Shown: in pieces, positions 2,340 through 53,921 of the stretch
How the letters are laid out: each line of letters opens with the position of its first letter
How positions within the stretch are numbered: position 1 is the first letter of the stretch
DNA from: an uncultured Clostridia bacterium
GTDB lineage: Bacteria > Bacillota > Clostridia > Oscillospirales > CAG-272
Length of the DNA stretch: 64,000 bases
Reading direction: 5' to 3'
Assembly (NCBI GenBank): GCA_947630015.1
Contig: CANRFY010000007.1
Location: 2,526 to 66,525, forward strand
The notes under the pieces: generated by a model
Databases searched by the model: none
What the model saw: the letters and a program-made list of their open reading frames with translations, nothing else
Told to the model about the DNA's origin: nothing
Program-made: the position numbers and the translations under genes

Positions 2340-2374
2340 ACGCGATATCTTTGAAATGGGGATTTAGGTGACGT

Positions 2375-3817: not shown

Positions 3818-3823
3818 ACCGAT

Positions 3824-5269: not shown

Positions 5270-5317
5270 CGCAGGTACGGATATGACTCTGATTAAAGCT
5301 TTTTTGGGAGGCGCGAT

Positions 5318-12483: not shown

Positions 12484-12532
12484 ATTGCTTTTTCCTTTCA
12501 GCAGAGAACGTCGGGAATCGATATCGAACCGT

Positions 12533-13861
12533 TTACGAAACGACCTCGCCGCGCAGATCGTAATCGAGCGTTTCGGTGATCTTCACGCGGATATGAGTCC
12601 CCGGCTCGGGGCGTTTTTTCTCGGGCAGAGTGAAATACACCATCCCGTCGACGTCGGGGGCGTCCCACTGTGTTCGGCCGTAGCACGAATCGGCGACGTA
12701 ATCGTAGCCCTCGTAGATGACGTCGAGGACTTTTCCGACGCGGCGCGCGTTTATCTTCGCCGAGATAGGCAGCTGCGCCGCCATGATCCTGTCGTAGCGA
12801 TCCTGTTTTACCTGCTCGTCGATCTGATCGGGGAAATCGTATGCGGGCGTTCCCTCCTCGCGGGAATATTTGAACGCACCGAATTTATCGAATTTCACCT
12901 CGTGGACGAACTCGAGCAGCTCGTCAAATTCGGCCTCGGTCTCGCCCGGGAAGCCGACGATCGCAGTCGTGCGGATCGCGATATTCGGTATTCCGCTGCG
13001 GAGCCTGTTGACCGCGTCGCGGACGCAGGCGGCGCCGCCGTGGCGGTTCATGCGGGAAAGCACGGTATCGGCGACGTGCTGGATCGGCAGGTCGATGTAT
13101 TTGACGACTCGCGGATTGTCGCGTATTTCGCGGATCAGCTCGTCGGTGATCTTATCGGGATAGCAGTACATGATGCGGAGCCACGGGATCGAGGTCTCCT
13201 CCGTTATCCTGTGCAAAAGCTCGGCGAGCTTGTATTCACCGTACAGATCGATCCCGTAACGCGTCGTGTCCTGTGCGACGAGGATGAGTTCGCCGACTCC
13301 GAGGGAGTCGAGCGATTTTGCCTCCTCGATAATATCCTCCATCGTGCGGGAGCGGTGGCGGCCGCGTATGTACGGTATCGCGCAGTAGGAGCAGCGATTG
13401 TCGCAACCCTCCGCGATCTTGAGATACGCGAACGCGTCCGTCGTTACGACGCGTTCGCCGCCGAGCGGCGCCGAATCGCGGTCGCCGTATGCGGCGAATT
13501 TGCCGCCGGCCTCGACGGCGCGAACCGCGTCCACGATCTCATGCACCGAACCGACGCCGAGAACGGCGTCGACCTCCGGCATCTCCTTCATGATCTCGTC
13601 GCGGTAACGCTCCGGCAGACATCCCGTCACTATTATGCCGCGCAGACCGCGGTTCTCCTTGAGCCACGCCACGTCGAGAATGCTGTCGATGGCCTCCCGC
13701 CGCGCTTCCTCTAAAAACGCGCACGTGTTCACGATCATGATGTCAGCCTCCGTGTCCTCCGGCGTGATCTCGTATCCCGCGTCGGTCAGAAGCTTTAACA
13801 TCACCTCTGTGTCCATCAAATTCTTCGCACATCCGAGAGATATGAAGCCAATTTTGGTCAT
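12533..13861 (-). CDS. rimO: Ribosomal protein S12 methylthiotransferase RimO
   Basis: 442 aa; KIGFISLGCAKN N-terminus, radical-SAM CDNRCSYC, C-terminal TRAM-like part. Confidence 0.88.
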   Translation of the reverse strand: MTKIGFISLGCAKNLMDTEVMLKLLTDAGYEITPEDTEADIMIVNTCAFLEEARREAIDSILDVAWLKENRGLRGIIVTGCLPERYRDEIMKEMPEVDAVLGVGSVHEIVDAVRAVEAGGKFAAYGDRDSAPLGGERVVTTDAFAYLKIAEGCDNRCSYCAIPYIRGRHRSRTMEDIIEEAKSLDSLGVGELILVAQDTTRYGIDLYGEYKLAELLHRITEETSIPWLRIMYCYPDKITDELIREIRDNPRVVKYIDLPIQHVADTVLSRMNRHGGAACVRDAVNRLRSGIPNIAIRTTAIVGFPGETEAEFDELLEFVHEVKFDKFGAFKYSREEGTPAYDFPDQIDEQVKQDRYDRIMAAQLPISAKINARRVGKVLDVIYEGYDYVADSCYGRTQWDAPDVDGMVYFTLPEKKRPEPGTHIRVKITETLDYDLRGEVVS

Positions 13862-13876
13862 TTTATTTTATTTTGA

Positions 13877-13935
13877 GAGGAACTTTTTGAAAAAAGTTCC
13901 CCTCAAACTCCCTTCAAAAACTTTTATTACAAGGG
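13877..13935 (-). repeat. Palindrome family P, copy P1 (immediately 5' of rimO ATG)
   Basis: GAGGAACTTTTTGAAAAAAGTTCCCCTC plus flank CCTTCAAAAACTTTTATTACAAGGG. Confidence 0.85.
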
Positions 13936-14337
13936 TTATTTTTAGATAAATCAAAAACATTTGCTGTCTTCAGGGATAGCTTAAGATAAACACGATTTGG
14001 TCCGCTTTTGGAAGGGAACATCTCCTCGCTTTGCTCGGAGCTGTCACACTTTTCGCGTAGCGGAAAGTGTCCTTTCTACAAAAAGGTTCCTCGCAAACAA
14101 AAAAGTTGCCTCAAGTAAAAGCTTTTTGCTGCTAATATATCAACTATAACAATTCAATCAAAAAATGTTTCTCTCTCGCAACCGTCCGCTCATTCCAATA
14201 TCGTTCTCATCCCTGCGCGCAGATGAAAACGATGCAAATCGTTTTCTCGACTTCGTCCGCGCTGTGAATCGACAGCTCCGCAAAGCCTGATCGCATATAT
14301 CCCCCGCATAACAATCGCCGTTTCCCTCACGCAAACG

Positions 14338-14601
14338 CTATTCCCCGTCGACGCGTCCGCCGCAGTACGGGCAGAACCGCCCCGACACGGGAAGCACTTT
14401 TCCGCAGTGCGGACATTTTCGTAACGCGAGCCTCATCGCCGCGCCCGCGATCAACGCCAAAAATCCCGCCGCCGCGATATAGGCGCAGACGGCGACGCCG
14501 TCGTAATTTCCGTCCGCGATCATAAGTCCCATCGCGAGCAGATCCGTGACAAGGACAAAAACGGCGGCCGCGATCGTTATAATCGCTGCTTTTTTCATCA
14601 T
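14338..14601 (-). CDS. Small membrane protein with C-terminal zinc ribbon
   Basis: 87 aa; two hydrophobic helices then CPHCG...CPYCGG; start overlaps recX stop (ATGA). Confidence 0.55.
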   Translation of the reverse strand: MMKKAAIITIAAAVFVLVTDLLAMGLMIADGNYDGVAVCAYIAAAGFLALIAGAAMRLALRKCPHCGKVLPVSGRFCPYCGGRVDGE

Positions 14602-40365: not shown

Positions 40366-40404
40366 AAAATCCGCCCCCGAAGACGCGTCTCGGAGGCGGA
40401 TTTT
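40366..40404. terminator. Bidirectional terminator between ttcA (+) and the FHA/kinase operon (-)
   Basis: AAAATCCGCC...GGCGGATTTT long hairpin with A/T runs on both sides. Confidence 0.7.
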
Positions 40405-40417: not shown

Positions 40418-42052
40418 TCAGAATCTGAGTCTGAACGCCACAGAACCCATCGAAATCTCGTCGCCGCTGCGCAGACGGTTCGGCGCGTAAATGCGCATAC
40501 CGCCAAGCCTCGTCCCGTCCGGCGTGCCGAAATCCTCGATGTAGACGATCTGATCCTTTACGAATATGCGCGCGTGTACGGGCGCAACGTCGGGATTCTT
40601 CCATACGATGTCGCACTTCGGCTTGCTTCCGATCGTGAGTTCTTCGTCAAGATAAAGCGTCCTCGGTCCCGCATAGCTGCCCGCGATCACGTCGAGCTTC
40701 ATATAGATGCCCTTGCCCGCGGCAGCCGCGCCTCCGGCGCGCTTTTTATTCTTTTTGCCAGCTCTCGCAACCGCGATCACGGCGATTATGAGCAGCACGG
40801 CAACGACGCCGACGATCACCCATATAAGCACTTTATCGCCGAAGAACTTCGAGAAAAAGCTCTCCGATCCGCCCGTCTCGGCGTCGGTCTCCGCCTCCGC
40901 CGTGAAGCCGTCGGTGCCGGCGTCTGTACCGGCGTCTGTGCCGATCTCGGTCTCGCGTCCGCCGTCAGTGTCCGGCGCATCCGTCGCGGGTTCGTCGGTC
41001 GCGGGTTCATCCGTCGCCGCAGGTTCCTCGGTGCTGTCGGGTTCCTCGGTGTCGACCGTATCGATCGGATCAGCCGTATCGGCTGTATCGGAGCCCTCCG
41101 ATTCCGTATCGATCGGACGCGATGTGATCAGCATCGGAACGCCGCTCAAAACAGACGTTTTGAGCGTCACATCGCCGCCGTCCCCGTCCTTGCCCGCGAA
41201 TTCGAGCTGCACCGACTTCGTGCCTGTCAACTCGCCCGCGCCCTTGAAGCAGGCTGCGTAAAGTCCGTTCACGTACTGCGCAAGATCATGGCCTGCCTTG
41301 GCCGCCGTCATCTCAGCATTGATGAACATCCTCATGCCGTTCACGTCGTCGAGCGCCTTGAACGCGTCGCCGCCCCATTCAGCGCCAACGCAGAGCGTAT
41401 GCGCGATCACGTCGGGATGCGATGCGATCGCATCCTCGAGCGCGCTTTTCGCGCTTTTATCTATCGTCGGCACGCGGCCGTCCGAGATTATGACGAGATT
41501 GACGGCCTCGCCGTCCCTCTCGACGCCTCGCAGATACTCGTATGCCTCGACGATGCCGCCGAATACGCCCACGGCGGATTCCTCATATTTGACATTCTTT
41601 ACCGCGTTCGAGACAGCCTTTTTCCCGACGAGGCCCTCGGCCTCGATCTTTAGTCCGTTCGCGCACGTCGCGACGGCAAAGACCGCGTCCTCGGAGTCTT
41701 TCGCCAGCTCCTCCGCGAACGTCTCGGCGCTGCGCTTCACGCCCGCCATTGTCGCCGACGTATCGATAAGGATCAGATACGCCGCCGGCGTATCGCTTTC
41801 CCCGACCGTCGTAAGAGGCGACGACGCGCCCGATTTGCCGGATATTATCGACGCGCTCTCGAACGTAACGCCGCCGACAGCGCTCGCATCCGCGAATGTG
41901 TAGATGTCGGCGCCCTCGCCGTATGCGGAAACTAATTTGACGCCCGCGTTGATTCCGTCGGCGGTTATGCCGTCGCCGGCGGCGAACGCCGGCATCGCGA
42001 TGCAGATCGCGAGCATTATCGACACGACGATAAACGCTGTTTTTTTGTTCAT
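40418..42052 (-). CDS. Signal peptide - vWA-like ectodomain - TM - cytoplasmic FHA domain protein
   Basis: MNKKTAFIVVSIMLAICIAMPAFA signal; LILIDTSATM MIDAS-like; acidic T/D/E-rich linker; TM VLIWVIVGVVAVLLIIAVIAV; C-terminal FHA (LTIGSKPKCDIVW...VHARIF...IEDFGTPDGTRLGG). Confidence 0.8.
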   Translation of the reverse strand: MNKKTAFIVVSIMLAICIAMPAFAAGDGITADGINAGVKLVSAYGEGADIYTFADASAVGGVTFESASIISGKSGASSPLTTVGESDTPAAYLILIDTSATMAGVKRSAETFAEELAKDSEDAVFAVATCANGLKIEAEGLVGKKAVSNAVKNVKYEESAVGVFGGIVEAYEYLRGVERDGEAVNLVIISDGRVPTIDKSAKSALEDAIASHPDVIAHTLCVGAEWGGDAFKALDDVNGMRMFINAEMTAAKAGHDLAQYVNGLYAACFKGAGELTGTKSVQLEFAGKDGDGGDVTLKTSVLSGVPMLITSRPIDTESEGSDTADTADPIDTVDTEEPDSTEEPAATDEPATDEPATDAPDTDGGRETEIGTDAGTDAGTDGFTAEAETDAETGGSESFFSKFFGDKVLIWVIVGVVAVLLIIAVIAVARAGKKNKKRAGGAAAAGKGIYMKLDVIAGSYAGPRTLYLDEELTIGSKPKCDIVWKNPDVAPVHARIFVKDQIVYIEDFGTPDGTRLGGMRIYAPNRLRSGDEISMGSVAFRLRF

Positions 42053-42074
42053 TGATCCGTCCTCCCACAGTCCG

Positions 42075-42809
42075 TCATCTGACGATGACGGTCATTAGCG
42101 AAAGATTGTCGTTTCCGCGTCCGATGCGCGAGATCACGCGGAGCAGCAGATGCTCCGCCCAGTCGCGCGCGTCGATCGATTTCAACAGATCGAGCGGCAC
42201 TTCGTCGTCGAACAGGTATTCCCAAACGCCGTCGGAGCAGAGCAGAAACGCGTCGCCGGACATAAGCGGCTCCGGCGAGCCGCCGATATCGGGCTGATTG
42301 CGGTCAGCGCCGCCGAGCGTGCGCAGAAGATACGACTGATCCTCGTCCTGTCCGATCTGATGGCGCGTTATCTCGCCCGCCTGATACTTCTTGTACGCGA
42401 CGGAATGATCGTCCGTGACGCTCAGTATAGCGCCGTCGCGCAGATAGTAGAGGCGCGAATCGCCCACGTTGGCCCATGTCGCGCGATCGCCGTCAACGGC
42501 GAGGACGACGACGGTGCTTTTCATCGTGGCGCGGCGCTCCGTCTGGAGCTTCATGACCTCGGTATTCGCAAGCGCGATCTTATCGCGCAGCCATTCCGCG
42601 CGGTCGCCGCATTCAGTCTCGCGTTCCCATTCGGACGCAAGCGTTTCCGCGACGCAGGACGACGCAACCTCTCCGAGCTGATGGCCGCCGAGTCCGTCGG
42701 CGACGACGAATATACCGGAGCCGTCGCGGAGCCTGCACGCGACCGAATCCTCATTCTGCTCTCTGTCGCCGGCGTTTGTGTAGTAAAATACGTCTAATAT
42801 CATAGGCAT
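42075..42809 (-). CDS. PP2C-family Ser/Thr phosphatase (1)
   Basis: 244 aa; REQNEDS, VADGLGGH, CSDGV motifs. Confidence 0.9.
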   Translation of the reverse strand: MPMILDVFYYTNAGDREQNEDSVACRLRDGSGIFVVADGLGGHQLGEVASSCVAETLASEWERETECGDRAEWLRDKIALANTEVMKLQTERRATMKSTVVVLAVDGDRATWANVGDSRLYYLRDGAILSVTDDHSVAYKKYQAGEITRHQIGQDEDQSYLLRTLGGADRNQPDIGGSPEPLMSGDAFLLCSDGVWEYLFDDEVPLDLLKSIDARDWAEHLLLRVISRIGRGNDNLSLMTVIVR

Positions 42810-44203
42810 TACGAAAGCTCGACACGCATCATGTTGGCGCGGTCGCCGAGATAGAAGCTGTCGCCGGATTTAAGTCTGTACGCCATGCCCGCCACGAGCT
42901 TTGTGCCGTTCACGAGATACGTTCCGTATGTGGAGCGCAGATCGGTAAGCACGAATTCGCCCGTCGCGCGGTCATAGCTTACGGAGCAGTGACGCGTGCT
43001 GACGCCCGGGGTGCCGTCGCGGAACACGATCTGGCACGTCGCCTTGTCGCGTCCGATCAAAAGCTGCGCGCCCGTGATCGCGACTCTCATGCCGCCGTGC
43101 TGTTCGGACAGCGAACGCACCGACGGCGTCTGTGCCGGCGACGGCACACCCGCGCCGACGGCTGCGGGACCTGCTGCCGGCGTCTGAGCCGGCGTCTGGC
43201 CCTTCTTTATAAGCAGCACTACGACAACGCCTATAACGACGACGACAAGAACGCCGATGAGGACGATCGCGGCCGTGCTGATATTGAATGTGCTGGTTGT
43301 GGGTTTGACATCGATCTTCAGATCTTCAAGAATGTCCAAAACATACTCAATTTCTATCGAATACTGAGTCTTGGAGTCGCCCGACGACGAATCGGGACTC
43401 ATTGTCCAAGTATTGACGCCGACGACTCTGCCTTTTTCGTCTATAAGCGGTCCGCCCGAGTTGCCGTGGTTGATCGTCGCCGTATGCTGGATAACTCTGA
43501 CGTCGGTATCGTCGGCCGCTACCGTCGTATGAAGCGACACGATACCGCTTGTGACCGTTACCTTTTCAACGCTTGCCGCATACTCCTTGCCGGAGAAATT
43601 GCCGAGCGTCGCATCGTCTGTCGTTCCTGGGAATCCGAGCGCGTATACGGTGTCGCCCGATTCGATCTCCTCGTCCTCGGGGAGAAGCGGGAGTGCGACT
43701 CTGCCCTCCATCGGCTCCGCCGCTCTCAGAACGGCGAGGTCGGCCTCGTCCTCATCCGCCTCGTAAAGCACGCGGCACGGGATCGCGCGGCTCTTGTCAA
43801 GCTCGCCGTTGGAATCCATTGCGAAATCGTCCTTGAGCAGATAGATGCTCGTTACGCGTCCTTGGAACACGTAGTATTCGCCGTTGATCTCCTGCAATGA
43901 CGCGGTGTCTCTTTCAATTACGTGTCTGTTCGTAACGAACACGTCTGTCTCGCCGCCCGTATTGCCGACGCCGAACGCGGTGCCTGTCGACGTCATGTAG
44001 CCCGTGCCGTAATACGACAGATCGTCCGAGGCCACATCATATTTATAAACATCGCAATCGTCATAAATAGCCAAAACTCTCGCAACGCCGTTTCTCGATT
44101 CAGCCGCGATATTGTTGCCGCTCTTCCCCGTCGACGCGCATCCGGATAAAGCCAGCGCGAGTATCATCGCGATAAGTATCGCGCATACTGTTCTTTTTTT
44201 CAT
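42809..44203 (-). CDS. Lipoprotein signal - trypsin-like (S1C) protease ectodomain - TM - FHA domain protein
   Basis: LALSGCAS lipobox; TNRHV and GNSGGPLIDEKGRVVGVNT protease motifs; TM AAIVLIGVLVVVVIGVVVVLLI; C-terminal FHA (LLIGRDKATCQIVF...STRHCSV...DLRSTYGTYLNG-like). Confidence 0.82.
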   Translation of the reverse strand: MKKRTVCAILIAMILALALSGCASTGKSGNNIAAESRNGVARVLAIYDDCDVYKYDVASDDLSYYGTGYMTSTGTAFGVGNTGGETDVFVTNRHVIERDTASLQEINGEYYVFQGRVTSIYLLKDDFAMDSNGELDKSRAIPCRVLYEADEDEADLAVLRAAEPMEGRVALPLLPEDEEIESGDTVYALGFPGTTDDATLGNFSGKEYAASVEKVTVTSGIVSLHTTVAADDTDVRVIQHTATINHGNSGGPLIDEKGRVVGVNTWTMSPDSSSGDSKTQYSIEIEYVLDILEDLKIDVKPTTSTFNISTAAIVLIGVLVVVVIGVVVVLLIKKGQTPAQTPAAGPAAVGAGVPSPAQTPSVRSLSEQHGGMRVAITGAQLLIGRDKATCQIVFRDGTPGVSTRHCSVSYDRATGEFVLTDLRSTYGTYLVNGTKLVAGMAYRLKSGDSFYLGDRANMMRVELS

Positions 44204-44238
44204 TTTCTTTTTCCTGCTTTCCGTTAATTTAAAGTGGA

Positions 44239-45057
44239 TCAATAGCCGCAGTATATACACAGCGCCGTGTAGTTGTCCTGATGCTTCCTGCCCTGACGTC
44301 TGATCTCCTCGTCGATGGCGGCGCACGCCTCCGTCGGCGTCGCGCGCCCGAGATAATCGAGCATCTGGCCGTCGGTCAGAACGCCGCCGACGCCGTCCGA
44401 GCAGATCAGGAGCGCATCGTTCTCGCGGAGCGGGAACGGCGAACGGAGATAATCGACCTCATTCATCCCGTCCATCCCCAAAAACTGCGTCAGCGCGGCC
44501 TTTTCGGGATTGCTCTCGGCCGGCTCGGGGTCCATGCTTCCGTCGCGGATCGCTTCGAGGTAGAGCTGGTTTCTGTATGTATGCTCGCGGTTGAGGCGGT
44601 ACAAGTGTCCCTCGCGCTTCAACAAAATGAAGCTGTCCCCGACGCTGGCGAAATAGAGCCGTTCGCGGAATATGATGCACGCGACGACGGTGCTGCCGCC
44701 GTCTCCGCCGAGACGGGAAAGCACCTGCGCGCTCGCCTTTACGACGGCGCGGCGGAGCTGTTCCGCTATATCGCCGTCGCGGTCGAACTCGGCAAATTCT
44801 CCGCGCAGACATGAAATCGCGGTCTCGCTTGCGATCTTACCGTCCTTCATGCCTCCCATTCCGTCCGCGACGACGGCGAAGAGACCCTTATTCTTCATTT
44901 CGGTCACGTCGAGCGCGTTTACGATCAGAAACGAATCCTCCTGTCTTGCGCGCGCGCCGATCCCCTGAAGATTTGCGGCCTGATAGCTCAGGAGCCGAGG
45001 CGTCGGCGTGTTCGGCGCCGTATCCTCTGCCGGTTCCTTATGGGAGAATGGCCACAT
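44239..45057 (-). CDS. PP2C-family Ser/Thr phosphatase (2)
   Basis: 272 aa; RARQEDS, VADGMGGM, CSDGV motifs. Confidence 0.9.
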   Translation of the reverse strand: MWPFSHKEPAEDTAPNTPTPRLLSYQAANLQGIGARARQEDSFLIVNALDVTEMKNKGLFAVVADGMGGMKDGKIASETAISCLRGEFAEFDRDGDIAEQLRRAVVKASAQVLSRLGGDGGSTVVACIIFRERLYFASVGDSFILLKREGHLYRLNREHTYRNQLYLEAIRDGSMDPEPAESNPEKAALTQFLGMDGMNEVDYLRSPFPLRENDALLICSDGVGGVLTDGQMLDYLGRATPTEACAAIDEEIRRQGRKHQDNYTALCIYCGY

Positions 45058-45063
45058 ATCGTT

Positions 45064-45711
45064 TTACTCCTCTTTCGGCGCAGGCACAAGGCCGTCCGCC
45101 CATGTGAATCTCGGGCAGCAGAGCGGAACGAATACGAATTTGCTCTCGCCGAATTCGACGCAGTCATACGCGTCGAGCTTTCTCGGGATATAGACGGGTT
45201 CGTCGTTTACGTAGATGTTGTTCGTGCTGTCGGCGGGGATAAGCGTGAAATTGTTGTGGCGCGAATCATACGCGATGCGCGCGTGGCGGTCGCGGGATAT
45301 CGTCTTATCGCCCTCGATGCGGATGTCCATGCCCTCTCCGCGTCCGACCGTGTTCTGCTTATCGTAGAGATGATAATCTCTGCCCTTGTCGGGGCCGTCG
45401 ATGCAGACGAGCCATCCCGTAACGGGTTCGAGGTTCGTCTTTTTGCGGGATACGCTGACGGTCTTGTTGTCGTCGTCCTGACGCTTTCTGTATCCGGCCG
45501 GAGCGACGGTCGCGCCGGGTTCTACGCTTGCGAATGCGTCCGGAGCAGGCTGTCCGATCGGATCGGGCGAGCCGCCGCCCATATTGCCGAGGGGAGTCGT
45601 TTTGCCCGGGCCGTCAAATGAGATCGCGTTTCCGCCTCCGTTGCAGTAGGGGCAGGACGGATAAAGATCCGAGTCGTAGAGATGATCGTTTGCGCATTTT
45701 GTGAGTGCCAT
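45064..45711 (-). CDS. Zinc-ribbon - FHA domain protein
   Basis: N-terminal C....H...CPYC ribbon; C-terminal FHA (NTVGRGEGMDIRI..ISRDRHARI...NNIYVNDEP). Confidence 0.85.
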   Translation of the reverse strand: MALTKCANDHLYDSDLYPSCPYCNGGGNAISFDGPGKTTPLGNMGGGSPDPIGQPAPDAFASVEPGATVAPAGYRKRQDDDNKTVSVSRKKTNLEPVTGWLVCIDGPDKGRDYHLYDKQNTVGRGEGMDIRIEGDKTISRDRHARIAYDSRHNNFTLIPADSTNNIYVNDEPVYIPRKLDAYDCVEFGESKFVFVPLCCPRFTWADGLVPAPKEE

Positions 45712-45760
45712 GATGTTCCTCCTGAATTGTGTTTTATATATTTTTTCAGAGATAGCGTTA

Positions 45761-47125
45761 TTATGTGATCGTTACCTCGATCACGTTTGCGGGGCCGCCG
45801 ACGAATATCCTGTCGCCGGAATGTATCTTAAGCTCCGCGCCCGGTTTAACCTTGTACGTGCCGTTCAGCATCGTGCCGTATGTGGAGTTCAGATCCTTTA
45901 CGGTCCATGTGCCGTAATTATACTGGATGCTGCAATGGTGACGGCTGACGCCGGCAGCCTCCGGCGGGAATTTTACGTCGCATTCGTCGTCTCGGCCGAT
46001 CATGATCGCCTTGCCCGTCGAGGTCGTGAACGCCGTGGACTGGATGCCGCCCATGACGCATCTGACGCTTATGTTCTTTCCCCTCGGCGACGACGCGCGC
46101 GACGACGCATAATATACGGGCTGCGCCGGCGTCGGCGGCGTATATGCCATAGGCGTTACCGGCGGCGCGCCGACTGTGGCGATCTGGTGCAGGCACATCC
46201 GCGTGATCCAGAGCGTAATGATCCACAGTATGACGATGATCCCCGTATATTTGAACAGCTCAAGCGTAAAATCGTCGAACAGCGGCGTGTTCCAGAGAAA
46301 ATGGAGCGCGTTCGACGCCGCGAAGGTCAATATGAACGGGATATTGAAGAAGCTCTCGAGACCGAATTTGTTGTTTTTCATGTTAAGCGCTATCGCCGCC
46401 GCATACGGAGCGCAGTAAAGCGTATGTCCGCCGAGGGCGAAAACTCCTCTCATTATCTGATTCGTTATCATGCTGTCGATCGTCGGCATCGCGATCGCGT
46501 ACTGCACCGACTCGAACGCGCCGAAGCCCGCGCCGACGGCGGCTCCGATCACGAGTCCCGTAATGCCGTAGATGCGGCGCTTCTGCTTGAAGATCGCGAT
46601 CAGGATGATCGCCGCGATCAATTTCGCCGGTTCTTCCCTGAGCGGAGCGAAGCTCGCCGGCAGCTCATCCGGCACGACGAGCATCATGATCGCCGTCATC
46701 GCCAGCGAGATGAGCGCGCCGAGGATGAACATCCCGAACACCTCAAATATCGAGATGTTGCGCGGGATATTGAGTTCCCAGAAGAACACGAGCAGTATGA
46801 TCGGCATAACGAGCGGCGGGATTATCGACGCCATGTAAAGCAGCGCCAAAAGCTGGCCGTCGATCGCGAATATCGAGATAAGGAATATGGCGTAGATGAG
46901 AAGGACAAGAACGATTCCGCCCTTCAGCATCGGGTAAAACAGCCACGGCTTGCGCCATTTTTGCAGCATCGTCTCCTCCGACGCGGTGTCGAGCGACGTG
47001 CCTGCCAAAAGCGCGTAATCGAAATCGGTGCGCGAATGCTTCACCCTGCATTCGGAGAACACGTCGCGCCATGTTATCAGCGACGCGTCCTGCCGCGCCT
47101 TGTAGAAAAATGTCCTGTTGCTCAT
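45761..47125 (-). CDS. PrsW-like intramembrane protease fused to C-terminal FHA domain
   Basis: Polytopic; REEPAKL and GFGAFES motifs as in PrsW proteases; C-terminal FHA (IMIGRDDECDVKF..VSRHHCSI...DLNSTYGTMLNG). Confidence 0.75.
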   Translation of the reverse strand: MSNRTFFYKARQDASLITWRDVFSECRVKHSRTDFDYALLAGTSLDTASEETMLQKWRKPWLFYPMLKGGIVLVLLIYAIFLISIFAIDGQLLALLYMASIIPPLVMPIILLVFFWELNIPRNISIFEVFGMFILGALISLAMTAIMMLVVPDELPASFAPLREEPAKLIAAIILIAIFKQKRRIYGITGLVIGAAVGAGFGAFESVQYAIAMPTIDSMITNQIMRGVFALGGHTLYCAPYAAAIALNMKNNKFGLESFFNIPFILTFAASNALHFLWNTPLFDDFTLELFKYTGIIVILWIITLWITRMCLHQIATVGAPPVTPMAYTPPTPAQPVYYASSRASSPRGKNISVRCVMGGIQSTAFTTSTGKAIMIGRDDECDVKFPPEAAGVSRHHCSIQYNYGTWTVKDLNSTYGTMLNGTYKVKPGAELKIHSGDRIFVGGPANVIEVTIT

Positions 47126-48576
47126 AACGGCTCGCCCCGCTCCGTGACGGCCGCATACAGCGGCGCGTCCCGCGCCGCGTCAGCCTCCGCATATATGGCG
47201 GGCGCATCGTCCGCCGCGTCCGGCAGCGTCAAATTCGGCGCCGCCGTTTTCAGCGCGAAGCTGATGAGGAATATGAAGAATCCGAGCATCAAAAGCGCGG
47301 CCGCGGCGCACGCGACGACAAGTATCACCTTTTCGGTGCTGTTCAGCATCTGCGGACGCGGCATATTGTTCTGCCACATCATCTGATTCATCTGATTCAT
47401 CGGCTGCTGCTGATTCATTTGATTCATTTGATTCATCTGCTGCTGCTGATTCATCTGATTCATCGGCTGCTGCTGATTCATCTGATTCATCTGATTTATT
47501 TGCGGGTTCATCTGCTGTCCCGACGTCGGATTTATCTGCGCGGGCGGCGTTTGATTTGCCGCCTGTCCCGACGTCTGACCGATCCGCTGTCCCGCTCCGT
47601 TCGACGGCGCGGGCATATCGAGCGCCCTGCGGAACGCCCCCATCGTGGCGAATCTGCCGCTCACATTGACGTTCAGTCCCTGAAGCAGCGCCGCTTCCTT
47701 TGCGGGCGGTATTTCGACTCCGAGTCCGCTCGGCGGGACGAGCTTGTCGTTATCCATCCTCTCGATCGATTCCGGCGGCTTCACTCCCGTTATCGCGTAA
47801 TAATAGCTTGCGGCGAGCGAGTACACGTCCGTGTACGGCCCCTGCTTTCCGTGCCTTGAATACTGCTCCTTCGGAGCGAATCCGTGCTTGAGTACGATGT
47901 CGAGACTGCAGCTCTTATCGCCGAGGCTGTATCTCGCCGCGCCGAAATCGAGCAGCTTGACGCCGCCGCTCTTTGTGATGAAAATGTTGTCCGGCGTGAC
48001 GTCGCGGTGGATGATCCCCTCGGCGTGGACGGCGTCGAGCGCGTCCATTATCGGCAGAAGAACGCGTTCCGCGTCCCGCCATCCGATCTTTCCGCCGTGA
48101 TCGCGAATGTATTTCTGGAAGCTCTCGCCCTCGACGTAATCCATGACGAAATACGCGGTGCCGTTTTCCTCGAAATAGCTGTGTATGCGGACGATATTGT
48201 CGTTGCCGATGAATTTTGCGAGCGTTTCCGCTTCCTTTAGGAAGCATTCCTTCCCGTACTCGAAATTATCTCTGCGTTCGCCGACGTAGGACGTCACCTC
48301 GTGAGTCCCCGTCCGCGTCGCGAATTCGTCGGGGAGATACTCCTTGACCGCCATTATGCCGTCCGTCTTGTAGTCCTTGGCCACATACGTTATGCCGAAG
48401 CCGCCCTGACCGAGTACGCGGCCGAGTATGTAGCGTCCGTTCAAAACGGAGCCGTGCGGAAGCGCGAGCGGATATTCCTCCGCCGCCCCCGACGGATCGT
48501 AGCCGCAGTACGGGCAGGCGCCGCCCTCCTCCGCCTTTTCGCGAAAGCAGTTATAACAAATCAGTTTCTCGTTCAT
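47122..48576 (-). CDS. Ser/Thr protein kinase 1 (N-terminal Zn ribbon, Q/N/M-rich linker, C-terminal TM)
   Basis: CYNCF...CPYCGY; GQGGFGITY, AVKEY, HRDVTPDNI, DFGAAR; stop overlaps PrsW-FHA start (ATGA). Confidence 0.93.
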   Translation of the reverse strand: MNEKLICYNCFREKAEEGGACPYCGYDPSGAAEEYPLALPHGSVLNGRYILGRVLGQGGFGITYVAKDYKTDGIMAVKEYLPDEFATRTGTHEVTSYVGERRDNFEYGKECFLKEAETLAKFIGNDNIVRIHSYFEENGTAYFVMDYVEGESFQKYIRDHGGKIGWRDAERVLLPIMDALDAVHAEGIIHRDVTPDNIFITKSGGVKLLDFGAARYSLGDKSCSLDIVLKHGFAPKEQYSRHGKQGPYTDVYSLAASYYYAITGVKPPESIERMDNDKLVPPSGLGVEIPPAKEAALLQGLNVNVSGRFATMGAFRRALDMPAPSNGAGQRIGQTSGQAANQTPPAQINPTSGQQMNPQINQMNQMNQQQPMNQMNQQQQMNQMNQMNQQQPMNQMNQMMWQNNMPRPQMLNSTEKVILVVACAAAALLMLGFFIFLISFALKTAAPNLTLPDAADDAPAIYAEADAARDAPLYAAVTERGEPL

Positions 48577-48612
48577 ACGACATCCCTCAAGCTGTATGAT
48601 TTGCGATCGACA

Positions 48613-50991
48613 TCATATCTGCGACTGATCGGCGAGCCTTATTACCTCGGTATCGATGAGCGCCCTTCCGTAGATTCGGTACTCGTCGAGCTGACCCGTG
48701 AAATATTCGCCGCTTTCCCACGGCGCGTATCCGATAAACACGACGCTGTTGTCGCCTAAGATATCGTGCATCGTATGGTTCGCGTCGGTCACCTCCATAT
48801 TCCACTGGAGTACCCCGTTAAAATAGAATTTAAGTCTGTTCGTCTTGCTGTTGAACGAGAACGCGACATGGTGCCATTCGGGTTCGCGTCCGAATTTCGT
48901 AACGGTGTTCACCATCCACGTATAACGGCGCTGAAAGTCTGAATACTCGCAGTTGTAGTATTCGGCGTTTACCGTCGTTTCGGTTTCCAATATGCCTATA
49001 TAGCGCTCATGTTCATATATGGGGACGAGGACCTCGGCGTCCATTCCGCCGCCGACGCGCGGACCCGCGAAAAATTCCCATTTCGACGCTGCCGCGGGAG
49101 TTGTCTTAGCCCAGTACGACACAGTGAACGAATCGAGTCCCGACATAAGCGGCGAGCCGTCGGCCTTGCTGATCTCGAGCCAGAACCGGTTATTGGGGGT
49201 TCGGACGAAGTCAAGCGCGCCGTTCTTCACGCCGTCGGCTGCGAATGTCGGCGTACCGTTTACGGTCTTGACCGAAACGCCGTCGTATGAAAGACCGCTC
49301 TCCGCGTCATCGAACGTAAGCCTCATAAGAAGTCCGTCCGGCACGATAACTGTCTCGGGCGCATCCGTGCCGGCGGCCGTATTGCCGTCGGTTTCATCGC
49401 CGGTCTGCGCACCGCCGCGCGTCATTGCGACGACGACGGCAGCGACCGTGATCCCGCATACGAGAAGCGCCGCCGCGAGTATAATTATCAACGTGGCTTT
49501 GCCCTTTTTGCGCGGCTTTTCGGCGCTTGCGGCCTTTTCCGCTTTTGCGGCTTTTTTAGCCTCTGCGGCTTTTTTAGCTTCTGCGGCCTTTTTAGCCTCC
49601 GCGGCCTTTTTAGCTTCTGCGGCTTTTTTAGCCTCTGCGGCCTTTTTGGCTTCCGCAGCCTTTTTAGCTTCTGCGGCCTTTTTAGCCTCTGCGGCCTTTT
49701 TAGATTCCGCAGCCTTTTCCGCTTCTGCGAATTTTTCCGTTTCTGCGGGTTTATCTTCCTGATCGAATCCGAATTCGCGCGCGCGGACGAGTACCGTATG
49801 CCCGTCGCCGCCCTCATATCCCGCGACCGTCGGCGTAATCTCTTCCTTCTGCGGCTCCGGCTGCTGTTCCTGCTGCTGTTCAGGCTGCGTCTTTACGCGC
49901 GGCAGCTTGTGCGTCGGCGGCTCCGGCAGAGGCGCCGCCTCCTGCTGTTTCAGCTTGCGCTGCGTCTCCGGCGGCGGATCCACCATCATCGGCGGCGGGG
50001 TAACCGTCTCGGGCGTCTCGGGCGGTCTTTCGCCCGTCAGCGCCGCGTGGAAATCCGTCATGCGGCTGAATCTTTCCGCGGGCTGGACGCTCAGACCCTT
50101 GAGGATCGCGTCCTCGACGTTTTCGGGTATATCTATGCCGAGATTGCTCGGCGGGATAAGATCGTCCTCATCCATTCTTTCGACGGAATCCGGCGGCTTT
50201 TTGCCCGTGATCGCGTAGTAGAACGACGCCGCGACCGAGTACACGTCCGTGAACGGCCCCTGCCGCCCGTGTCTCGTGTACTGTTCCTTCGGCGCGAATC
50301 CGTGCTTAAGCACGATATCGAGACTGCGGCTCCTGTCGCCGAGGCTGTATCTTGCCGCGCCGAAATCGAGCAGCTTGACCTCGCCGTCGTCGGTTATTAT
50401 TATGTTGTCGGGCGTAACGTCGCGGTGGATGATCCCCTTTGAATGGACGGCGTCGAGCGCGTCCATGATCGGGATCAGGATGCGTTCTGCATCCTGCCAG
50501 CTTATCTTCCCGCCGGAGTCGGCGATGTACTTTTCAAAGCTGACGCCCTCGACGTAATCCATGACGAAGTACGCGGTGCCGTTTTCCTCAAAATAGCAGT
50601 GTACGCGAACTATATTCGGATTGCCTATGAACTGTGCGAGCGTCTCCGCTTCCTCGAGAAAGCACTTTTTTCCGTACTCGAAATTCTCGCCGCGCTTCCC
50701 GGGATGCGCCAGCACCGTCAACGGTCCCGAGCGCGTCGCGACGGCGTCGGGAAGAAATTCCTTTATCGCGACAAGCTGGCCCGTTTTCCATTCCTGCGCA
50801 ACGTATGTGATGCCGAATCCGCCCTGGCCGAGTACGCGGCCGAGAATGTACCGCCCGTTCAGTATTGTTCCGTGCGGCAGCGCGACGGGATATTCCTCGC
50901 GCTCGTGAGTCGGATCATAGCCGCAGAGCCGGCAGACGTCCTCGCCGGCCGGTAAAGCGTGAAAGCAATTATAGCAAATTCCGCTGCTCAT
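48613..50991 (-). CDS. Ser/Thr protein kinase 2 (Zn ribbon, KKAAEA repeats, TM, LamG-like ectodomain)
   Basis: CYNCF...CRLCGY; kinase motifs as above; C-terminal ...LDEYRIYGRALIDTEV typical of LamG/ConA-like jelly-roll domains. Confidence 0.9.
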   Translation of the reverse strand: MSSGICYNCFHALPAGEDVCRLCGYDPTHEREEYPVALPHGTILNGRYILGRVLGQGGFGITYVAQEWKTGQLVAIKEFLPDAVATRSGPLTVLAHPGKRGENFEYGKKCFLEEAETLAQFIGNPNIVRVHCYFEENGTAYFVMDYVEGVSFEKYIADSGGKISWQDAERILIPIMDALDAVHSKGIIHRDVTPDNIIITDDGEVKLLDFGAARYSLGDRSRSLDIVLKHGFAPKEQYTRHGRQGPFTDVYSVAASFYYAITGKKPPDSVERMDEDDLIPPSNLGIDIPENVEDAILKGLSVQPAERFSRMTDFHAALTGERPPETPETVTPPPMMVDPPPETQRKLKQQEAAPLPEPPTHKLPRVKTQPEQQQEQQPEPQKEEITPTVAGYEGGDGHTVLVRAREFGFDQEDKPAETEKFAEAEKAAESKKAAEAKKAAEAKKAAEAKKAAEAKKAAEAKKAAEAKKAAEAKKAAEAKKAAKAEKAASAEKPRKKGKATLIIILAAALLVCGITVAAVVVAMTRGGAQTGDETDGNTAAGTDAPETVIVPDGLLMRLTFDDAESGLSYDGVSVKTVNGTPTFAADGVKNGALDFVRTPNNRFWLEISKADGSPLMSGLDSFTVSYWAKTTPAAASKWEFFAGPRVGGGMDAEVLVPIYEHERYIGILETETTVNAEYYNCEYSDFQRRYTWMVNTVTKFGREPEWHHVAFSFNSKTNRLKFYFNGVLQWNMEVTDANHTMHDILGDNSVVFIGYAPWESGEYFTGQLDEYRIYGRALIDTEVIRLADQSQI
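49545..49715 (-). repeat. In-frame 18-nt tandem repeat encoding (KKAAEA)n in kinase 2
   Basis: GCGGCCTTTTTAGCYTCT units repeated about 8-9 times. Confidence 0.9.
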
Positions 50992-51033
50992 TTCTGTCCC
51001 TCGGATATGATTTTTCGTATATGTGTCAAGGCG

Positions 51034-53310
51034 TTAGTCCTTCGTCATTATGTTGCGCCAAGATTCAACGTAGCACTGACCGTAATGATTATAGCCGACC
51101 GCGACGACGGAGCCGTCTTCACGCACTCCCACGGTATGAAGCAACCCCGCAGAGACAGCGACAAGATGACTCCATTCGGATCCGTCTACCTCGGATCTGC
51201 CGAATTTGGTGCTGTCATCGCCGACTGACACAGCCGTTCCGTCAGCTTTAAGTCCGACCGTATGGAAAGCATGAGCCGAGATCATCACGATGTCGCGCCA
51301 ATCTCCGACATCGCATTGACCGTTAGAGTTGTTTCCGACGGCTACGACGGTTCCGTCGAGCTTAAGCCCGAGCGTAAAGTTTTCGCTGGCTACGATCTGT
51401 ACGATATCATGCCAATCCTCGACGTTGCACTGGCCGTAATCATTATTTCCAACCGCGACGCACGTTCCGTCTCTGAGCAGCGCGACCGTGTGGTTAAATC
51501 CCGCTGAAATCGCGATAACATCGCTCCAGCCGCCCACATTAAGATCGCCGTTAATGCCTCCGCCGACAGCGACAACTGTCCCGTCGCTTCTGAGTCCGAC
51601 CGTATGCACATTTCCTACGTCGATGGAAATTATATTGCTCCAGTCCCCAACGTTGCACTGGCCGTATTCATTATCACCTACAGCTACGCACGTTCCGTCC
51701 TCGCGCAGTCCGACCGAAAACGCGTGACAGCCGTTATCGTCGTTATAATAACCTCCGGCCGCGACCGAGATAATGTTCGTCCATCCGCCCACATCGCATT
51801 CGTTCGTTTCGTTGCATCCCGTCGCCATGACAGTGCCGTCATTTTTGATCGCGAGCGTATGCATCGGCCCTGCGGAAATTGTATTTGTGAGGTAATACCC
51901 CACCTCATAAACGACCGAACCGCTTGACGGCGGCTCCGTCTCGGGCGGATTCGTTACAGGCGGTTCCGTCTCGGGCGGGTTTGTTACAGGCGTTTCCGTT
52001 CCCTCGTTCGGCCCCGACGGAATGATCACGCCGCCGATCCTATCGGTGTCGTCGTCGTCATTGCCGTGGTTGTATCCGTCCGTGTCGTCTCTGTATGACG
52101 GCACGTAGGGTTCGTCGTCCTGCATCAGGCTTGAGACGCCGACCGCGATCAGAACCGCGATCGCAACGACGCCTGCCAATATCGCGGGGATGAGCCATTT
52201 CGGCATCTTTTTCTTCGGCTGCTGCACCGGCGGAATGAACGGCGGCAGAATGCCCTGTCCCGATCCGTATGGCGTCGTCTGCGTCGTCTGCGTGTACGGC
52301 GGCTGCACGCCCTGCGAGCCGGACATATTCTGCACGGGAGGTGCGAGAAGAGCTGCCTTGAACGCCGCCATGCGCTGGAAGCGTCCCGATTCGTTGACGC
52401 TCAGTCCCTGAAGGATCGCGGCCTCGACGTTTTTCGGTATATCGGGGCAGTATGCGCTCGGCGGGACGAGTCTGTCGTCCTCCATGCGTTCGATCGATTC
52501 CGGCGGCTTTTTGCCCGTCACGGCGTAATAGAACGTCGCCGCGAGCGCGTAAACATCGGTGAACGGCCCCTGTCTGCCGTGCTGTTTATACTGCTCCTTC
52601 GGCGCGAAGCCATGCTTCAGCACGATATCGAGACTGCAGCTTCTGTCGCCGATGCTGTATCTTGCCGCGCCGAAATCGATCAGCTTTACGCTGCCATTCG
52701 ACGTTATCATTATATTATCGGGCGTGACGTCGCGATGTATGATGCCCTCGGCATGGACGGCGTCGAGCGCGTCCATGACGGGGAACAGGAAATTCTCCGC
52801 CTCGCGCCAGCCGATCTTTCCGCCCTTGCTCTCGATATAACGCTGAAGGCTGACGCCCTCGACGTATTCCATCGCGAAATAGCCCGTCCCGTTTTCCTCG
52901 AAATAGCTTTTGACATGGACTATATTCGGATGCGAGTTGAATTTGGAGAGCATCTGAGCTTCCTTAAGGAAGCAGTCCTTCCCGTATGTAAAGTTCTCGG
53001 CGCGTTCGCCCGTATATGGGGTGATCTGGCATCCGCCCGTTCTCGATGCGAGAGAGTCGGGCATATATTCCTTTATGGCGATGAGGGATTTTGTTTTCCA
53101 TTCCTGCGCCACATATGTGATGCCGAATCCGCCCTGGCCGAGTACACGGCCCGTTATGTAGCGTCCGTTTAAAACGGAGCCGAGGGGCAATGCCGCAGGG
53201 AACAGTCCTTCATCGCGCGCCGGATCATATCCGCAGTGCGGGCAGGCTCCGGATTCCGGTTTTTCGCGAAAGCAGTTATAGCACAAGCTGGCGTTCATAT
53301 ATTTCCTCAT
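51034..53310 (-). CDS. Ser/Thr protein kinase 3 (Zn ribbon, TM, RCC1-like repeat ectodomain)
   Basis: CYNCF...CPHCGY; kinase motifs; about 7 repeats of HTVGL..DGTVVAVG.N..GQC.V..W..I. Confidence 0.9.
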   Translation of the reverse strand: MRKYMNASLCYNCFREKPESGACPHCGYDPARDEGLFPAALPLGSVLNGRYITGRVLGQGGFGITYVAQEWKTKSLIAIKEYMPDSLASRTGGCQITPYTGERAENFTYGKDCFLKEAQMLSKFNSHPNIVHVKSYFEENGTGYFAMEYVEGVSLQRYIESKGGKIGWREAENFLFPVMDALDAVHAEGIIHRDVTPDNIMITSNGSVKLIDFGAARYSIGDRSCSLDIVLKHGFAPKEQYKQHGRQGPFTDVYALAATFYYAVTGKKPPESIERMEDDRLVPPSAYCPDIPKNVEAAILQGLSVNESGRFQRMAAFKAALLAPPVQNMSGSQGVQPPYTQTTQTTPYGSGQGILPPFIPPVQQPKKKMPKWLIPAILAGVVAIAVLIAVGVSSLMQDDEPYVPSYRDDTDGYNHGNDDDDTDRIGGVIIPSGPNEGTETPVTNPPETEPPVTNPPETEPPSSGSVVYEVGYYLTNTISAGPMHTLAIKNDGTVMATGCNETNECDVGGWTNIISVAAGGYYNDDNGCHAFSVGLREDGTCVAVGDNEYGQCNVGDWSNIISIDVGNVHTVGLRSDGTVVAVGGGINGDLNVGGWSDVIAISAGFNHTVALLRDGTCVAVGNNDYGQCNVEDWHDIVQIVASENFTLGLKLDGTVVAVGNNSNGQCDVGDWRDIVMISAHAFHTVGLKADGTAVSVGDDSTKFGRSEVDGSEWSHLVAVSAGLLHTVGVREDGSVVAVGYNHYGQCYVESWRNIMTKD

Positions 53311-53352
53311 TCTTTGTCAAGAAGTTACAGACATTCTATTGTATTATACACC

Positions 53353-53382
53353 TTGCGGCATGGAGAAATCAATAGTAAATGT
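53353..53382 (-). promoter_or_regulatory. Candidate promoter of kinase/phosphatase/FHA operon (TTGATT-N18-TATAAT)
   Basis: Read on minus strand about 45 nt upstream of kinase 3 ATG, which has a GAGGA RBS. Confidence 0.45.
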
Positions 53383-53536
53383 GATTTTGGTTAATTTTTT
53401 TGTAATAGTTTGTCATTTGAAAGATGAGGAGGGGGAAGGCGAGGCTATTTTCTTTAAAAAGAAAACAACCTCACCTTGCAAAAAGGTGGGGGTTGAAAGT
53501 CTATGGCAGGGGATGTTAGTGCGTCGGTCGAAGCAA

Positions 53537-53640
53537 CCGCCCCGCGAAGAGCTGTTCGCACACAGCTTCAGCGCGTTGTTCTTTTGGAGAGGGTGTTTGG
53601 GGGAGGACCCTTTCTTTTGAAGAAAGGGTCCTCAGCCCAA
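53537..53640 (+). repeat. Solo delta module
   Basis: CCGCGAAGAGCTGTTCGCACACAGC...hairpin 53603-53633. Confidence 0.85.
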
Positions 53641-53895
53641 TCAGCCTCTTTTCCGCGAAAAGAGGCCCTTAACATAATTTAAAAACTTTATAAAGTTTAA
53701 AGAAAAGTAAACGATAGAATCGCAAAGGAAAATTCTTTGCCCTCGCACCTCTTTGCCGGCCGGCAAAGAGACCCTTAACTCATTTTAACTTTTGCAAAAG
53801 TTTTAGATGCGGAAAGGCAAGTACCGCGAAGGAAAAACTTTGCTTCAACCTTTTCTAAAGTTTGCAAAAAGGAAAGGATAGAACCCCCCCATGAA
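53640..53895 (-). repeat. Solo inverted alpha-long module plus a second alpha fragment
   Basis: H2 remnant 53645-53673, H1 53748-53780, palindrome 53787-53802, fragment 53825-53890. Confidence 0.85.
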
Positions 53896-53921
53896 TCACC
53901 TTAACACCATTCCGCCCCTTT

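Follow-up and report, generated by a model that had tools for sequence, protein, structure and literature searches.

What does a run of nine bacterial genes control when its products appear to be only writers, erasers and readers of phosphothreonine? The question is posed by a block of nine minus-strand open reading frames (ORFs), at 40418-53310 of a 64,000-nucleotide stretch of DNA from an uncultured Clostridia bacterium of the CAG-272 lineage (GenBank assembly GCA_947630015.1, contig CANRFY010000007.1, positions 2,526 to 66,525 of the forward strand). We refer to this whole stretch as the window. A first-pass annotation, made from the letters alone, had described the block as a single transcription unit of three Ser/Thr kinases, two PP2C phosphatases and four FHA-domain proteins, with no obvious substrate gene and with secreted or membrane proteases as its partners. 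Our comparisons indicate that the block is one member of a cluster family conserved in (gut) Clostridia, for which we found no published description. By a narrow measure, we consider it probable that the block is a self-contained cell-envelope phosphothreonine signalling module, in which kinases would recruit or gate FHA-tailed proteases and PP2Cs would reset them. The coupling of FHA, Hanks-kinase and PP2C signalling to proteases is what is new here.

Domain calls were made by a Pfam search of the nine ORF products, which upheld the three kinases, two PP2Cs and four FHA proteins; the domains of all nine genes, g1 to g9 (Table 1), agree with a block built from these three classes and nothing else. 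The ORF listing places the genes where the annotation had put them, and their spacing, re-measured, confirms the tight packing. From g1 to g9 the intergenic distances are 42, 36, -4, 49, 6, 35, -1 and 22 nucleotides, with overlaps at 47122-47125 (g3/g4) and 42809 (g7/g8). Together, domain content and operon-like packing support a writer, eraser and reader logic for phosphothreonine within one block. Judged from the signal peptide, the lipobox, the transmembrane helices and the charges around them, the protease, vWA and sensor domains lie outside the cell and the kinase and FHA domains inside.

Table 1. Genes of the block and its candidate transcription signals, in window coordinates
Feature	Coordinates	Strand	Evidence
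g1, receptor kinase 1	51034-53310	-	Pkinase 2e-34; RCC1_2 6e-44, 6 repeats
g2, receptor kinase 2	48613-50991	-	Pkinase 2e-31; Laminin_G_3 1e-14
g3, kinase 3	47122-48576	-	Pkinase 3.5e-31
g4, PrsW-family intramembrane protease + FHA	45761-47125	-	PF13367 E 1.7e-16; Pfam FHA
g5, soluble Zn-knuckle-FHA	45064-45711	-	Pfam FHA; C-x3-H-x9-CPxC knuckle, linker, FHA
g6, PP2C phosphatase 1	44239-45057	-	PP2C/PP2C_2 (Pfam)
g7, lipoprotein trypsin-transmembrane-FHA	42809-44203	-	Trypsin_2 1e-20; FHA 2e-14
g8, PP2C phosphatase 2, short, soluble	42075-42809	-	PP2C/PP2C_2 (Pfam); all motifs present
g9, vWA-transmembrane-FHA	40418-42052	-	Pfam FHA; vWA by profile comparison
Candidate sigma-70-type promoter, TTGATT-18-TATAAT	53343-53372	-	Upstream of kinase 1; 10/12 consensus match
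Bidirectional intrinsic terminator	40366-40404	both	16-pair stem, 8 GC pairs; common to convergent PP-loop gene

A gene-neighbourhood survey, which the first-pass annotation had proposed, shows that the block is conserved. The survey covered 79 genomic loci that carry a PrsW-FHA gene; they belong to Lachnospiraceae, Oscillospiraceae, Acutalibacteraceae, Monoglobus, Enterocloster, Blautia, Dorea and Murimonas. Profiles made from the window domains were run against the ORFs of these loci, and genes were counted if they lay on the same strand and within 10 kb of the PrsW-FHA gene. A kinase is present in 71 of the 79 loci, a kinase and a PP2C in 68, and both of these with a Zn-knuckle-FHA protein in 56. 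Two or more PP2Cs occur in 52 loci, a trypsin-FHA protein in 32 and a vWA-FHA protein likewise in 32, and 23 loci have all six protein kinds, as in the window. Where kinases are present they number one to four per locus, and the median is four FHA proteins per locus; the loci without partner genes are mostly short contigs. Since kinase and PP2C recur in 68 of 79 independent PrsW-FHA loci, their combination is not a matter of chance. The window contains the four-part core of PrsW-FHA, Zn-ribbon Hanks kinase (HRD-x-[STA]-PDN), PP2C and Zn-knuckle-FHA, all co-oriented, and its nearest relatives, L004 and L007, keep the order PrsW-FHA, Zn-ribbon-FHA, PP2C, trypsin-FHA, PP2C, vWA-FHA. Flanking genes are not conserved among the loci, so the block behaves as a self-contained module; the only neighbours that recur, at 11 loci, are genes for a membrane histidine kinase and for a LuxR-type response regulator. 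No publication on PrsW-FHA, on protease-FHA neighbourhoods or on this cluster was found, within a literature coverage that is incomplete.

The gene on which the survey was anchored, g4, encodes a PrsW-like protein with an FHA tail. PrsW is known to cleave anti-sigma factors as their site-1 protease. The catalytic EE, E and H residues are retained in g4, and E164, E165, E205, H234 and H275 are invariant across 17 homologues. The AlphaFold2 model of g4 (predicted local distance difference test, pLDDT, 84.8) comprises approximately eight transmembrane helices, a disordered linker at residues 322-348 and then the FHA domain, a helix count that would leave the N-terminus and the FHA domain on the same side of the membrane. 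In a fold search with this model only the FHA part was matched, superposing on OdhI, GarA, ArnA, FhaA and DgcB (TM-scores 0.8-0.86), and none of the ranked matches was a solved PrsW-like structure. PrsW-FHA proteins form a distinct family, with more than 270 clusters at 90% identity sharing both domains and 582 representatives at 50% identity (E<=1e-30). Searches with g4 in 72,556 plasmids, 50,697 phage records and 2.9 million viral contigs yielded no full-length PrsW-FHA, returning FHA-less PrsW proteins or nothing. The FHA-less proteins, H1-H16, come from Listeria and Staphylococcus plasmids and phage-labelled records and align with g4 at about 30% identity from residue ~10-20 to residue 282; as the alignment reaches this far, the conserved N-terminal segment of g4 is shared with the wider PrsW subfamily.

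The second protease, g7, has a lipobox (LSGC), an extracellular trypsin/HtrA-like serine protease domain with an intact H-D-S triad, a transmembrane helix, a TP-rich linker and a cytoplasmic FHA domain. Its start most likely lies at 44203 (MKKRT..., 464 residues), as in the gene calls of metagenome contigs. We rejected a GTG start at 44326, which would overlap g6 and is not the one used in those calls. The FHA domains of g4, g5 and g7 retain the GR and SxxH motifs, which are kept in 82-100% of each class across relatives.

The three kinases are paralogous, with Zn-ribbon-kinase modules that are 66-70% identical and tails that are unrelated. Each opens with a CxxC..CxxC ribbon and continues into a Hanks kinase domain with the catalytic loop HRDVTPDN. 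In g1 the kinase is followed by a T-rich linker (TQTTQTTP), a transmembrane helix and an extracellular RCC1-type beta-propeller; in g2, by an AEAKKA-repeat spacer, a transmembrane helix and an extracellular Laminin_G_3/ConA-like lectin domain; and in g3, by a Q/N/M-rich repeat, a transmembrane helix and a short external tail without a sensor domain. The charges flanking the single transmembrane helices place the kinase domains inside and the RCC1 and LamG domains outside. The G-loop, the lysine of the VAIK motif (AIKE here), HRD and DFG are retained in g1-g3. Canonical Hanks kinases have a lysine in the catalytic loop at the position that is replaced here. The clade signature is HRD-[VI]-[TSA]-PDN, with [TSA] at the lysine position in 116 of 120 close homologues, and HRDISPDN prevails among the cluster-linked kinases of relatives. 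The clade is large, with at least 2891 clusters at 90% identity (E<=1e-20). The start of g1 is probably the second ATG, at 53298, which has GAGGA 5 nucleotides upstream and is supported by a metagenome gene call of 754 residues.

Two of the cytoplasmic spacers contain in-frame tandem repeats: kinase 2 has about 11 copies of an 18-nucleotide unit (AEAKKA) at 49528-49736, and kinase 3 has 9- and 63-nucleotide units (QMNQMN) at 47379-47503. The conspecific metagenome contig L001 has a deletion of about 37 nucleotides in the TQTTQTT linker repeat (position 4864, corresponding approximately to window 52263-52299 in g1), and kinase 1 is called there as two ORFs; the coverage of 3.3x makes an assembly error possible.

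Outside the membrane the kinases differ from locus to locus. Among 79 kinase tails from relatives, DUF5050 occurs in 30 and BspA-type LRR_5 in 22, and further tails carry RCC1, MORN, DUF285, choline-binding, Sel1 or Ig-like domains. The pattern predicted from these domains is one in which the kinase module is conserved and the repeat-type ligand binder attached to it varies. Such a pattern could also belong to a conflict or immune system directed against phage or competitors, with diversifying kinase sensors and with FHA-linked proteases as effectors. The paralogous expansion to as many as four kinases per locus, with conserved kinase modules and swapped leucine-rich repeat (LRR), propeller or lectin ectodomains, speaks for this explanation, as do the variable flanks, the two copies in some genomes (for example C. 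asparagiforme, L022 and L058), a TIR-LRR protein after the cluster in L081, and a layout like that of plant LRR receptor kinases with the FHA-PP2C protein KAPP. The genomic setting, on the other hand, speaks against it. The surroundings are housekeeping and origin-proximal: on one side lie gyrA, serS, parA, two parB/noc genes, ThiF and PP-loop genes, the other side has PIG-L, GFO/IDH/MocA and helix-turn-helix genes, and the GC content of the block is that of its neighbours. The failure to find full-length PrsW-FHA in the plasmid, phage and viral-contig collections also counts against an immune role. So may a comparison with PADLOC-DB v2, which gave generic matches at the domain level only (the kinases to PD-T4-6 and mad6, the trypsin domain to RT-Protease); the PrsW-FHA protein g4, the Zn-ribbon-FHA protein g5, the PP2C g6 and the vWA-FHA protein g9 had no matches there. 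We therefore regard an immune system as unlikely, and retain a phosphothreonine signalling module as our preferred explanation.

Such a module would need a substrate, and the absence of an obvious substrate gene had been a feature of the original description. The soluble protein g5 softens that statement. The nearest solved domains to its FHA domain are those of GarA, OdhI and FhaA, and, as in GarA and OdhI, a linker with a threonine motif precedes the FHA domain; g5 is not itself a member of the OdhI model, against which the score was 37 bits for a cut-off of 200. In the g5 family (n=60), the C-x3-H-x9-CPxC knuckle is combined with a linker that carries repeated G-x-T-x-P-[LV] motifs. T-x-P-[LVIM] was observed 117 times in these proteins compared with 7.0 +/- 2.7 in shuffles, and 49 of the 60 have a motif no more than 40 residues from the knuckle, compared with 8% expected. 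The same motif is enriched in kinase juxtamembrane regions (20 vs 6.4) and in trypsin-FHA linkers (6 vs 1.5). Many FHA domains favour a hydrophobic residue three positions after the phosphothreonine, which the T-x-P-[LV] motif fits. Given the strong enrichment in its family, g5 is likely a substrate of the kinases within the operon, and a probable hub or adaptor. As for the erasers, g6 has all of the metal-binding motifs of a PP2C (ED, DGMGG, GDS, SDG and DN) and scores 115 bits with the Stp1 model, under the cut-off of 230.

The last gene, g9, is the most divergent. Its product is an adhesin-like protein that comprises a signal peptide, a divergent extracellular vWA domain, an acidic linker, a transmembrane helix and an FHA domain. 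The vWA-FHA call of the first-pass annotation holds for the FHA domain and, through a profile of relatives, for the vWA domain: on its own, the ectodomain scores a sub-threshold 17.5 bits with Pfam VWA_2 (cut-off 27). A homologue search with g9 in 5.8 billion proteins returned only the protein itself, and the vWA call therefore rests on Pfam scans of relatives and on hhalign. Each of the 10 syntenic relatives that were scanned has a match to vWA models (best E 3.6e-15), their profile matches vWA domains in the PDB, and the g9 ectodomain aligns with that profile at a hhalign probability of 93.8% (E 1.8e-7). An AlphaFold2 model of g9 made without an alignment had a pLDDT of 40, too low for a fold search. 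The metal-ion-dependent adhesion site reads DxSGS...T...SDG in relatives and DxSxT in g9, where the middle threonine of the second motif is lost. The FHA domain of g9 is likewise without the GR arginine and the SxxH serine, both of which are kept by 85% of the relatives' vWA-FHA proteins. Judged by these losses, g9 looks like a fast-evolving, partly degenerate copy.

From the observed domain content, topology and conservation we infer how the parts might work together, including which sites are phosphorylated, how the proteins dock and that the output is proteolytic. The three paralogous receptor kinases, each crossing the membrane once, would present different ectodomains (RCC1 propeller, LamG lectin, none) on a shared cytoplasmic module. 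Once activated, they would phosphorylate threonine in the T-x-P-[LV] motif of the g5 linker, further targets being TP/TxP sites in the juxtamembrane segments of the kinases and in the linkers of the membrane-bound FHA proteins. Readers of the phosphothreonine would be the FHA tails that the PrsW protein g4 and the trypsin-like lipoprotein g7 extend into the cytoplasm, and in relatives also that of the vWA protein. Kinase activity would thereby assemble, position or gate a proteolytic complex in and outside the membrane, with g5 acting as a multivalent adaptor or as a GarA-like competitor, and the two PP2Cs would erase the marks and reset the system. We take the solved structures DgcB, Rv1747 and GarA/OdhI, all returned by the fold search, to be precedent for such FHA-gated effectors. 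In the Rv1747 ABC transporter with PknF, in Bdellovibrio DgcB and in GarA/OdhI, an FHA domain that reads phosphothreonine in a disordered linker switches an enzyme or a transporter, whereas in the block it is two proteases, one intramembrane and one extracellular, that would be gated.

Several points weigh against this proposal. The catalytic-loop lysine is replaced across the kinase clade, and kinase activity and residue specificity are predictions from sequence. The z-scores for the threonine motif are inflated by the shared ancestry of the sequences, and g5 of the window carries a single canonical motif (TTPL, 45589-45600). With its phosphothreonine-binding residues lost, g9 means that at least one reader is not a reader in this genome. 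Lastly, the FHA tails could equally make their proteins kinase substrates rather than serve as docking modules.

How does the proposed module relate to systems that are already described? Membership in the T6SS, T7SS, PknB/FhaAB, ArnAB and GAP1-N2 systems was rejected because the block fails on a defining feature of each. The first-pass annotation had likened it to the PpkA/PppA/Fha1 checkpoint of the type VI secretion system (T6SS) and to the actinobacterial Fha-PstP-Pkn cluster, and in both cases the logic is analogous while membership fails. The T6SS pathway likewise combines genes for a membrane-bound Hanks kinase, a PP2C and an FHA reader, and phosphothreonine-dependent FHA docking licenses a membrane machine; an extracytoplasmic vWA domain is present there too, on PpkA itself (PMC1262709). 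In contrast to that pathway, which uses a soluble FHA scaffold, the window belongs to a Gram-positive host and its FHA domains are fused to proteases and vWA. There are no T6SS genes in the flanks, and the TagH model TIGR03354 scores 34-39 bits against a cut-off of 120.

Closer in phylum are variants c-j of the type VII secretion system (T7SS), whose components include kinases, PPM phosphatases, FHA and vWA proteins (Garrett et al. 2024, PMC11217815). The module could then serve as the regulatory arm of a system for type VII-like secretion or interbacterial antagonism whose own genes lie elsewhere in the genome. Threonine phosphorylation would gate its assembly, a role proposed for T7SS variants c-j and one that it has in the T6SS PpkA/PppA/Fha1 pathway. 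The shared kit lends this some weight, as membrane kinases, PPM phosphatases and FHA proteins are found together with a vWA protein in the Bacillota T7SSc/d/e/f/j loci (PMC11217815), and in the distant relative L075 a gene for an EssC-like ATPase adjoins the kinase, PP2C and PrsW-FHA genes. Yet L075 is the only one of the 79 loci with an EssC-like gene within 10 kb: the EssC/TsxC ATPase is absent from the window and from 78 of the 79 relatives, and a phmmer search with the L075 protein recovered only itself among the ORFs of the window and of 82 loci, among which are the 79 genome loci. No ORF in the window reaches 1000 residues, the two largest outside the block being GyrA and a glycoside hydrolase. 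PrsW and trypsin components, moreover, are present here and in no described T7SS, the T7SS paper (PMC11217815) describing neither. We judge a T7SS arm decidedly unlikely. The claim that the block is coupled to proteases rather than to a secretion or cell-wall machine is thus borne out, with no such machine linked in the window and one in a single relative of the 79.

The actinobacterial FhaA/FhaB-PstP-RodA-PbpA-PknA/PknB cluster resembles the block in bringing together, in one operon, multiple kinases, a PP2C and at least two FHA proteins, among them a transmembrane-plus-FHA protein. It differs in having cell-wall synthases where the block has proteases, and in its PASTA domains, RodA and PbpA. 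This likeness bears on a further explanation, namely that the block controls cell-envelope growth or division as an analogue of PknB/PrkC-PstP-FhaA/FhaB, or envelope stress through PrsW as in sigma-W activation. The general role of PrsW as a site-1 protease of anti-sigma factors is in keeping with it, and g4 has the catalytic residues that the PrsW/extracytoplasmic function (ECF) sigma pathway requires. The transmembrane-plus-FHA tails resemble FhaB/FipA, and beside the cluster the 11 loci of one sub-clade encode a divergent membrane histidine kinase and a LuxR-type regulator. The expected partners, however, are missing. PASTA was found neither in the window kinases (Pfam) nor in the 79 kinase tails of relatives, and SEDS (RodA), penicillin-binding protein (PbpA), sigma and anti-sigma genes were found in neither the nine genes nor the flanks; RodA/PbpA and a cognate sigma/anti-sigma pair are not recurrent in the flanks of relatives either. 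All NCBIfam equivalog scores fall far under their cut-offs: PknB_PASTA_kin gave 143-171 bits against 450, on kinases whose ectodomains are RCC1_2, Laminin_G_3 or nothing, and the FhaB/FipA equivalog NF049868 gave 30-50 bits against 125. An envelope growth or stress regulator of this kind is, in our estimate, quite unlikely.

Three further systems share parts of the phosphothreonine module. In Sulfolobus, the Zn-finger-FHA protein ArnA and the vWA protein ArnB are controlled by the Hanks kinases ArnC/D and PP2A (PMC5007285). The pairing of a Zn-finger-FHA with a vWA protein recurs here, g5 resembling ArnA in architecture only, and the FHA domain of ArnA is among the structural matches of the g4 FHA. 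ArnB, however, is cytoplasmic, binds ArnA through a phosphorylated tail and represses archaellum genes, whereas the vWA domain of the block lies outside the cell and the block has no DNA-binding output; g9, with its signal peptide, external vWA, transmembrane helix and FHA domain, is not a cytoplasmic vWA protein with a phosphorylated C-terminal tail. Deinococcus DRA0331-DRA0334 (vWA, Ser/Thr protein kinase, FHA, FHA-PP2C) show the same four-part co-encoding. In the GAP1-N2 theme, Zn-ribbon kinases are linked to PP2C and vWA as an accessory of actinobacterial GTPase/GAP1 systems (Kaur et al. 2020, PMC7159879). Both differ from the block in being without protease-FHA fusions. The vWA-PP2C-kinase association from the comparative genomics of the Aravind laboratory, to which the first-pass annotation had pointed, is similar in composition, but it is an accessory theme of GTPase-centred systems, which are absent here: no GTPase/GAP1 domain was found above threshold in the nine proteins, and the Zn ribbon of g2 gave a sub-threshold GAP1-N2 match (16 bits, cut-off 24).

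Relatives vary around the shared core. Many add a kinase-FHA fusion and further transmembrane-FHA proteins that the window does not have. In 41 of the 79 loci there are extra proteins with a signal peptide, a beta-rich ectodomain, a transmembrane helix, a TxP-rich linker and an FHA domain (e.g. L014 11512-12933, L005 11766-13094). Their ectodomains match no Pfam domain, a few being marginally similar to the trypsin profile, and they may be pseudo-proteases. In the 11-locus sub-clade, which includes L034, L042, L050, L052, L056, L061, L066 and L068, the divergent histidine kinase (~460-525 residues) and the LuxR/GerE-type regulator lie directly upstream of the cluster, mostly in divergent orientation. 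Variant loci in Enterocloster/[Clostridium] asparagiforme (L016, L020, L022) carry a PP2C-transmembrane protein, a stand-alone vWA, a kinase and a PP2C with a Zn ribbon, followed by two genes of unknown kind, an M48/Sel1-like protein, a radical-SAM/SPASM enzyme and PrsW-FHA; their genomes also hold a full cluster (L058, L064). Full or near-full clusters on contigs labelled as Desulfobacter or Bacteroides metagenome-assembled genomes (L046, L019, L071) probably reflect mis-binning or transfer from Clostridia. The EssC-like protein of L075 (11553-16037) is a 1494-residue FHA-transmembrane-FtsK/SpoIIIE protein encoded directly downstream of the kinase, Zn-knuckle, PP2C and PrsW-FHA genes. In L081, another distant relative, the cluster is flanked by a 1689-residue ubiquitin-like-domain/GLUG-repeat protein (696-5765) and the TIR-LRR protein (12232-14430), both with the flavour of conflict systems.

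At the edges of the block, one transcription signal is clearer than the other. For the promoter placed at 53353-53382 by the first-pass annotation, we found an overlapping match at 53372-53343, which is the best minus-strand match within the 610-nucleotide intergenic region and a match to consensus only. Promoter-like matches are common in this region (16 found vs 7.9 expected), so the element is only a candidate. The bidirectional terminator that had been placed downstream was confirmed: the hairpin at 40404-40366 has A and T runs on both sides, and thus T-runs on both strands, and is the strongest terminator-like element of the region. No comparable terminator occurs in any intergenic gap of the block. 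The non-coding stretch between PIG-L and kinase 1 (53311-53921) contains several hairpins and imperfect direct repeats, such as 53659-53682 and 53765-53788 (83% identity), and 21-nucleotide arms at 53596-53640; it has no Rfam match, nor has any other part of the window.

To our knowledge, nearly all that has been learned of Ser/Thr kinase-FHA signalling in Firmicutes comes from PASTA kinases of the PrkC/IreK type. Here a different and very large kinase clade is linked to FHA domains that are fused directly to intramembrane and extracellular proteases, and the cluster offers a compact and full list of parts, from sensor, writer, eraser and readers to a candidate substrate motif and effectors. 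We speculate, holding it to be possible although unlikely, that these clusters form a hitherto unrecognised bacterial surface-surveillance class, in which receptor kinases with swappable LRR, beta-propeller or lectin ectodomains would sense extracellular ligands (such as phage, competitor or host glycans) and license an extracellular serine protease and an intramembrane protease through phosphothreonine-FHA contacts. If so, the receptor-kinase/KAPP logic of plants would have a bacterial parallel whose effectors are proteases, and one that is widespread among Lachnospiraceae and Oscillospiraceae of the gut. For the self-contained envelope signalling module that we favour, the cluster is carried by cultured strains (Enterocloster lavalensis, [Clostridium] asparagiforme DSM 15981, Dorea acetigenes, Blautia sp. 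MSJ-9 and Murimonas intestini), and the hypothesis is therefore directly testable. The conserved linkage of kinases to protease-FHA fusions would imply phosphorylation-gated proteolysis at the envelope of abundant gut anaerobes.

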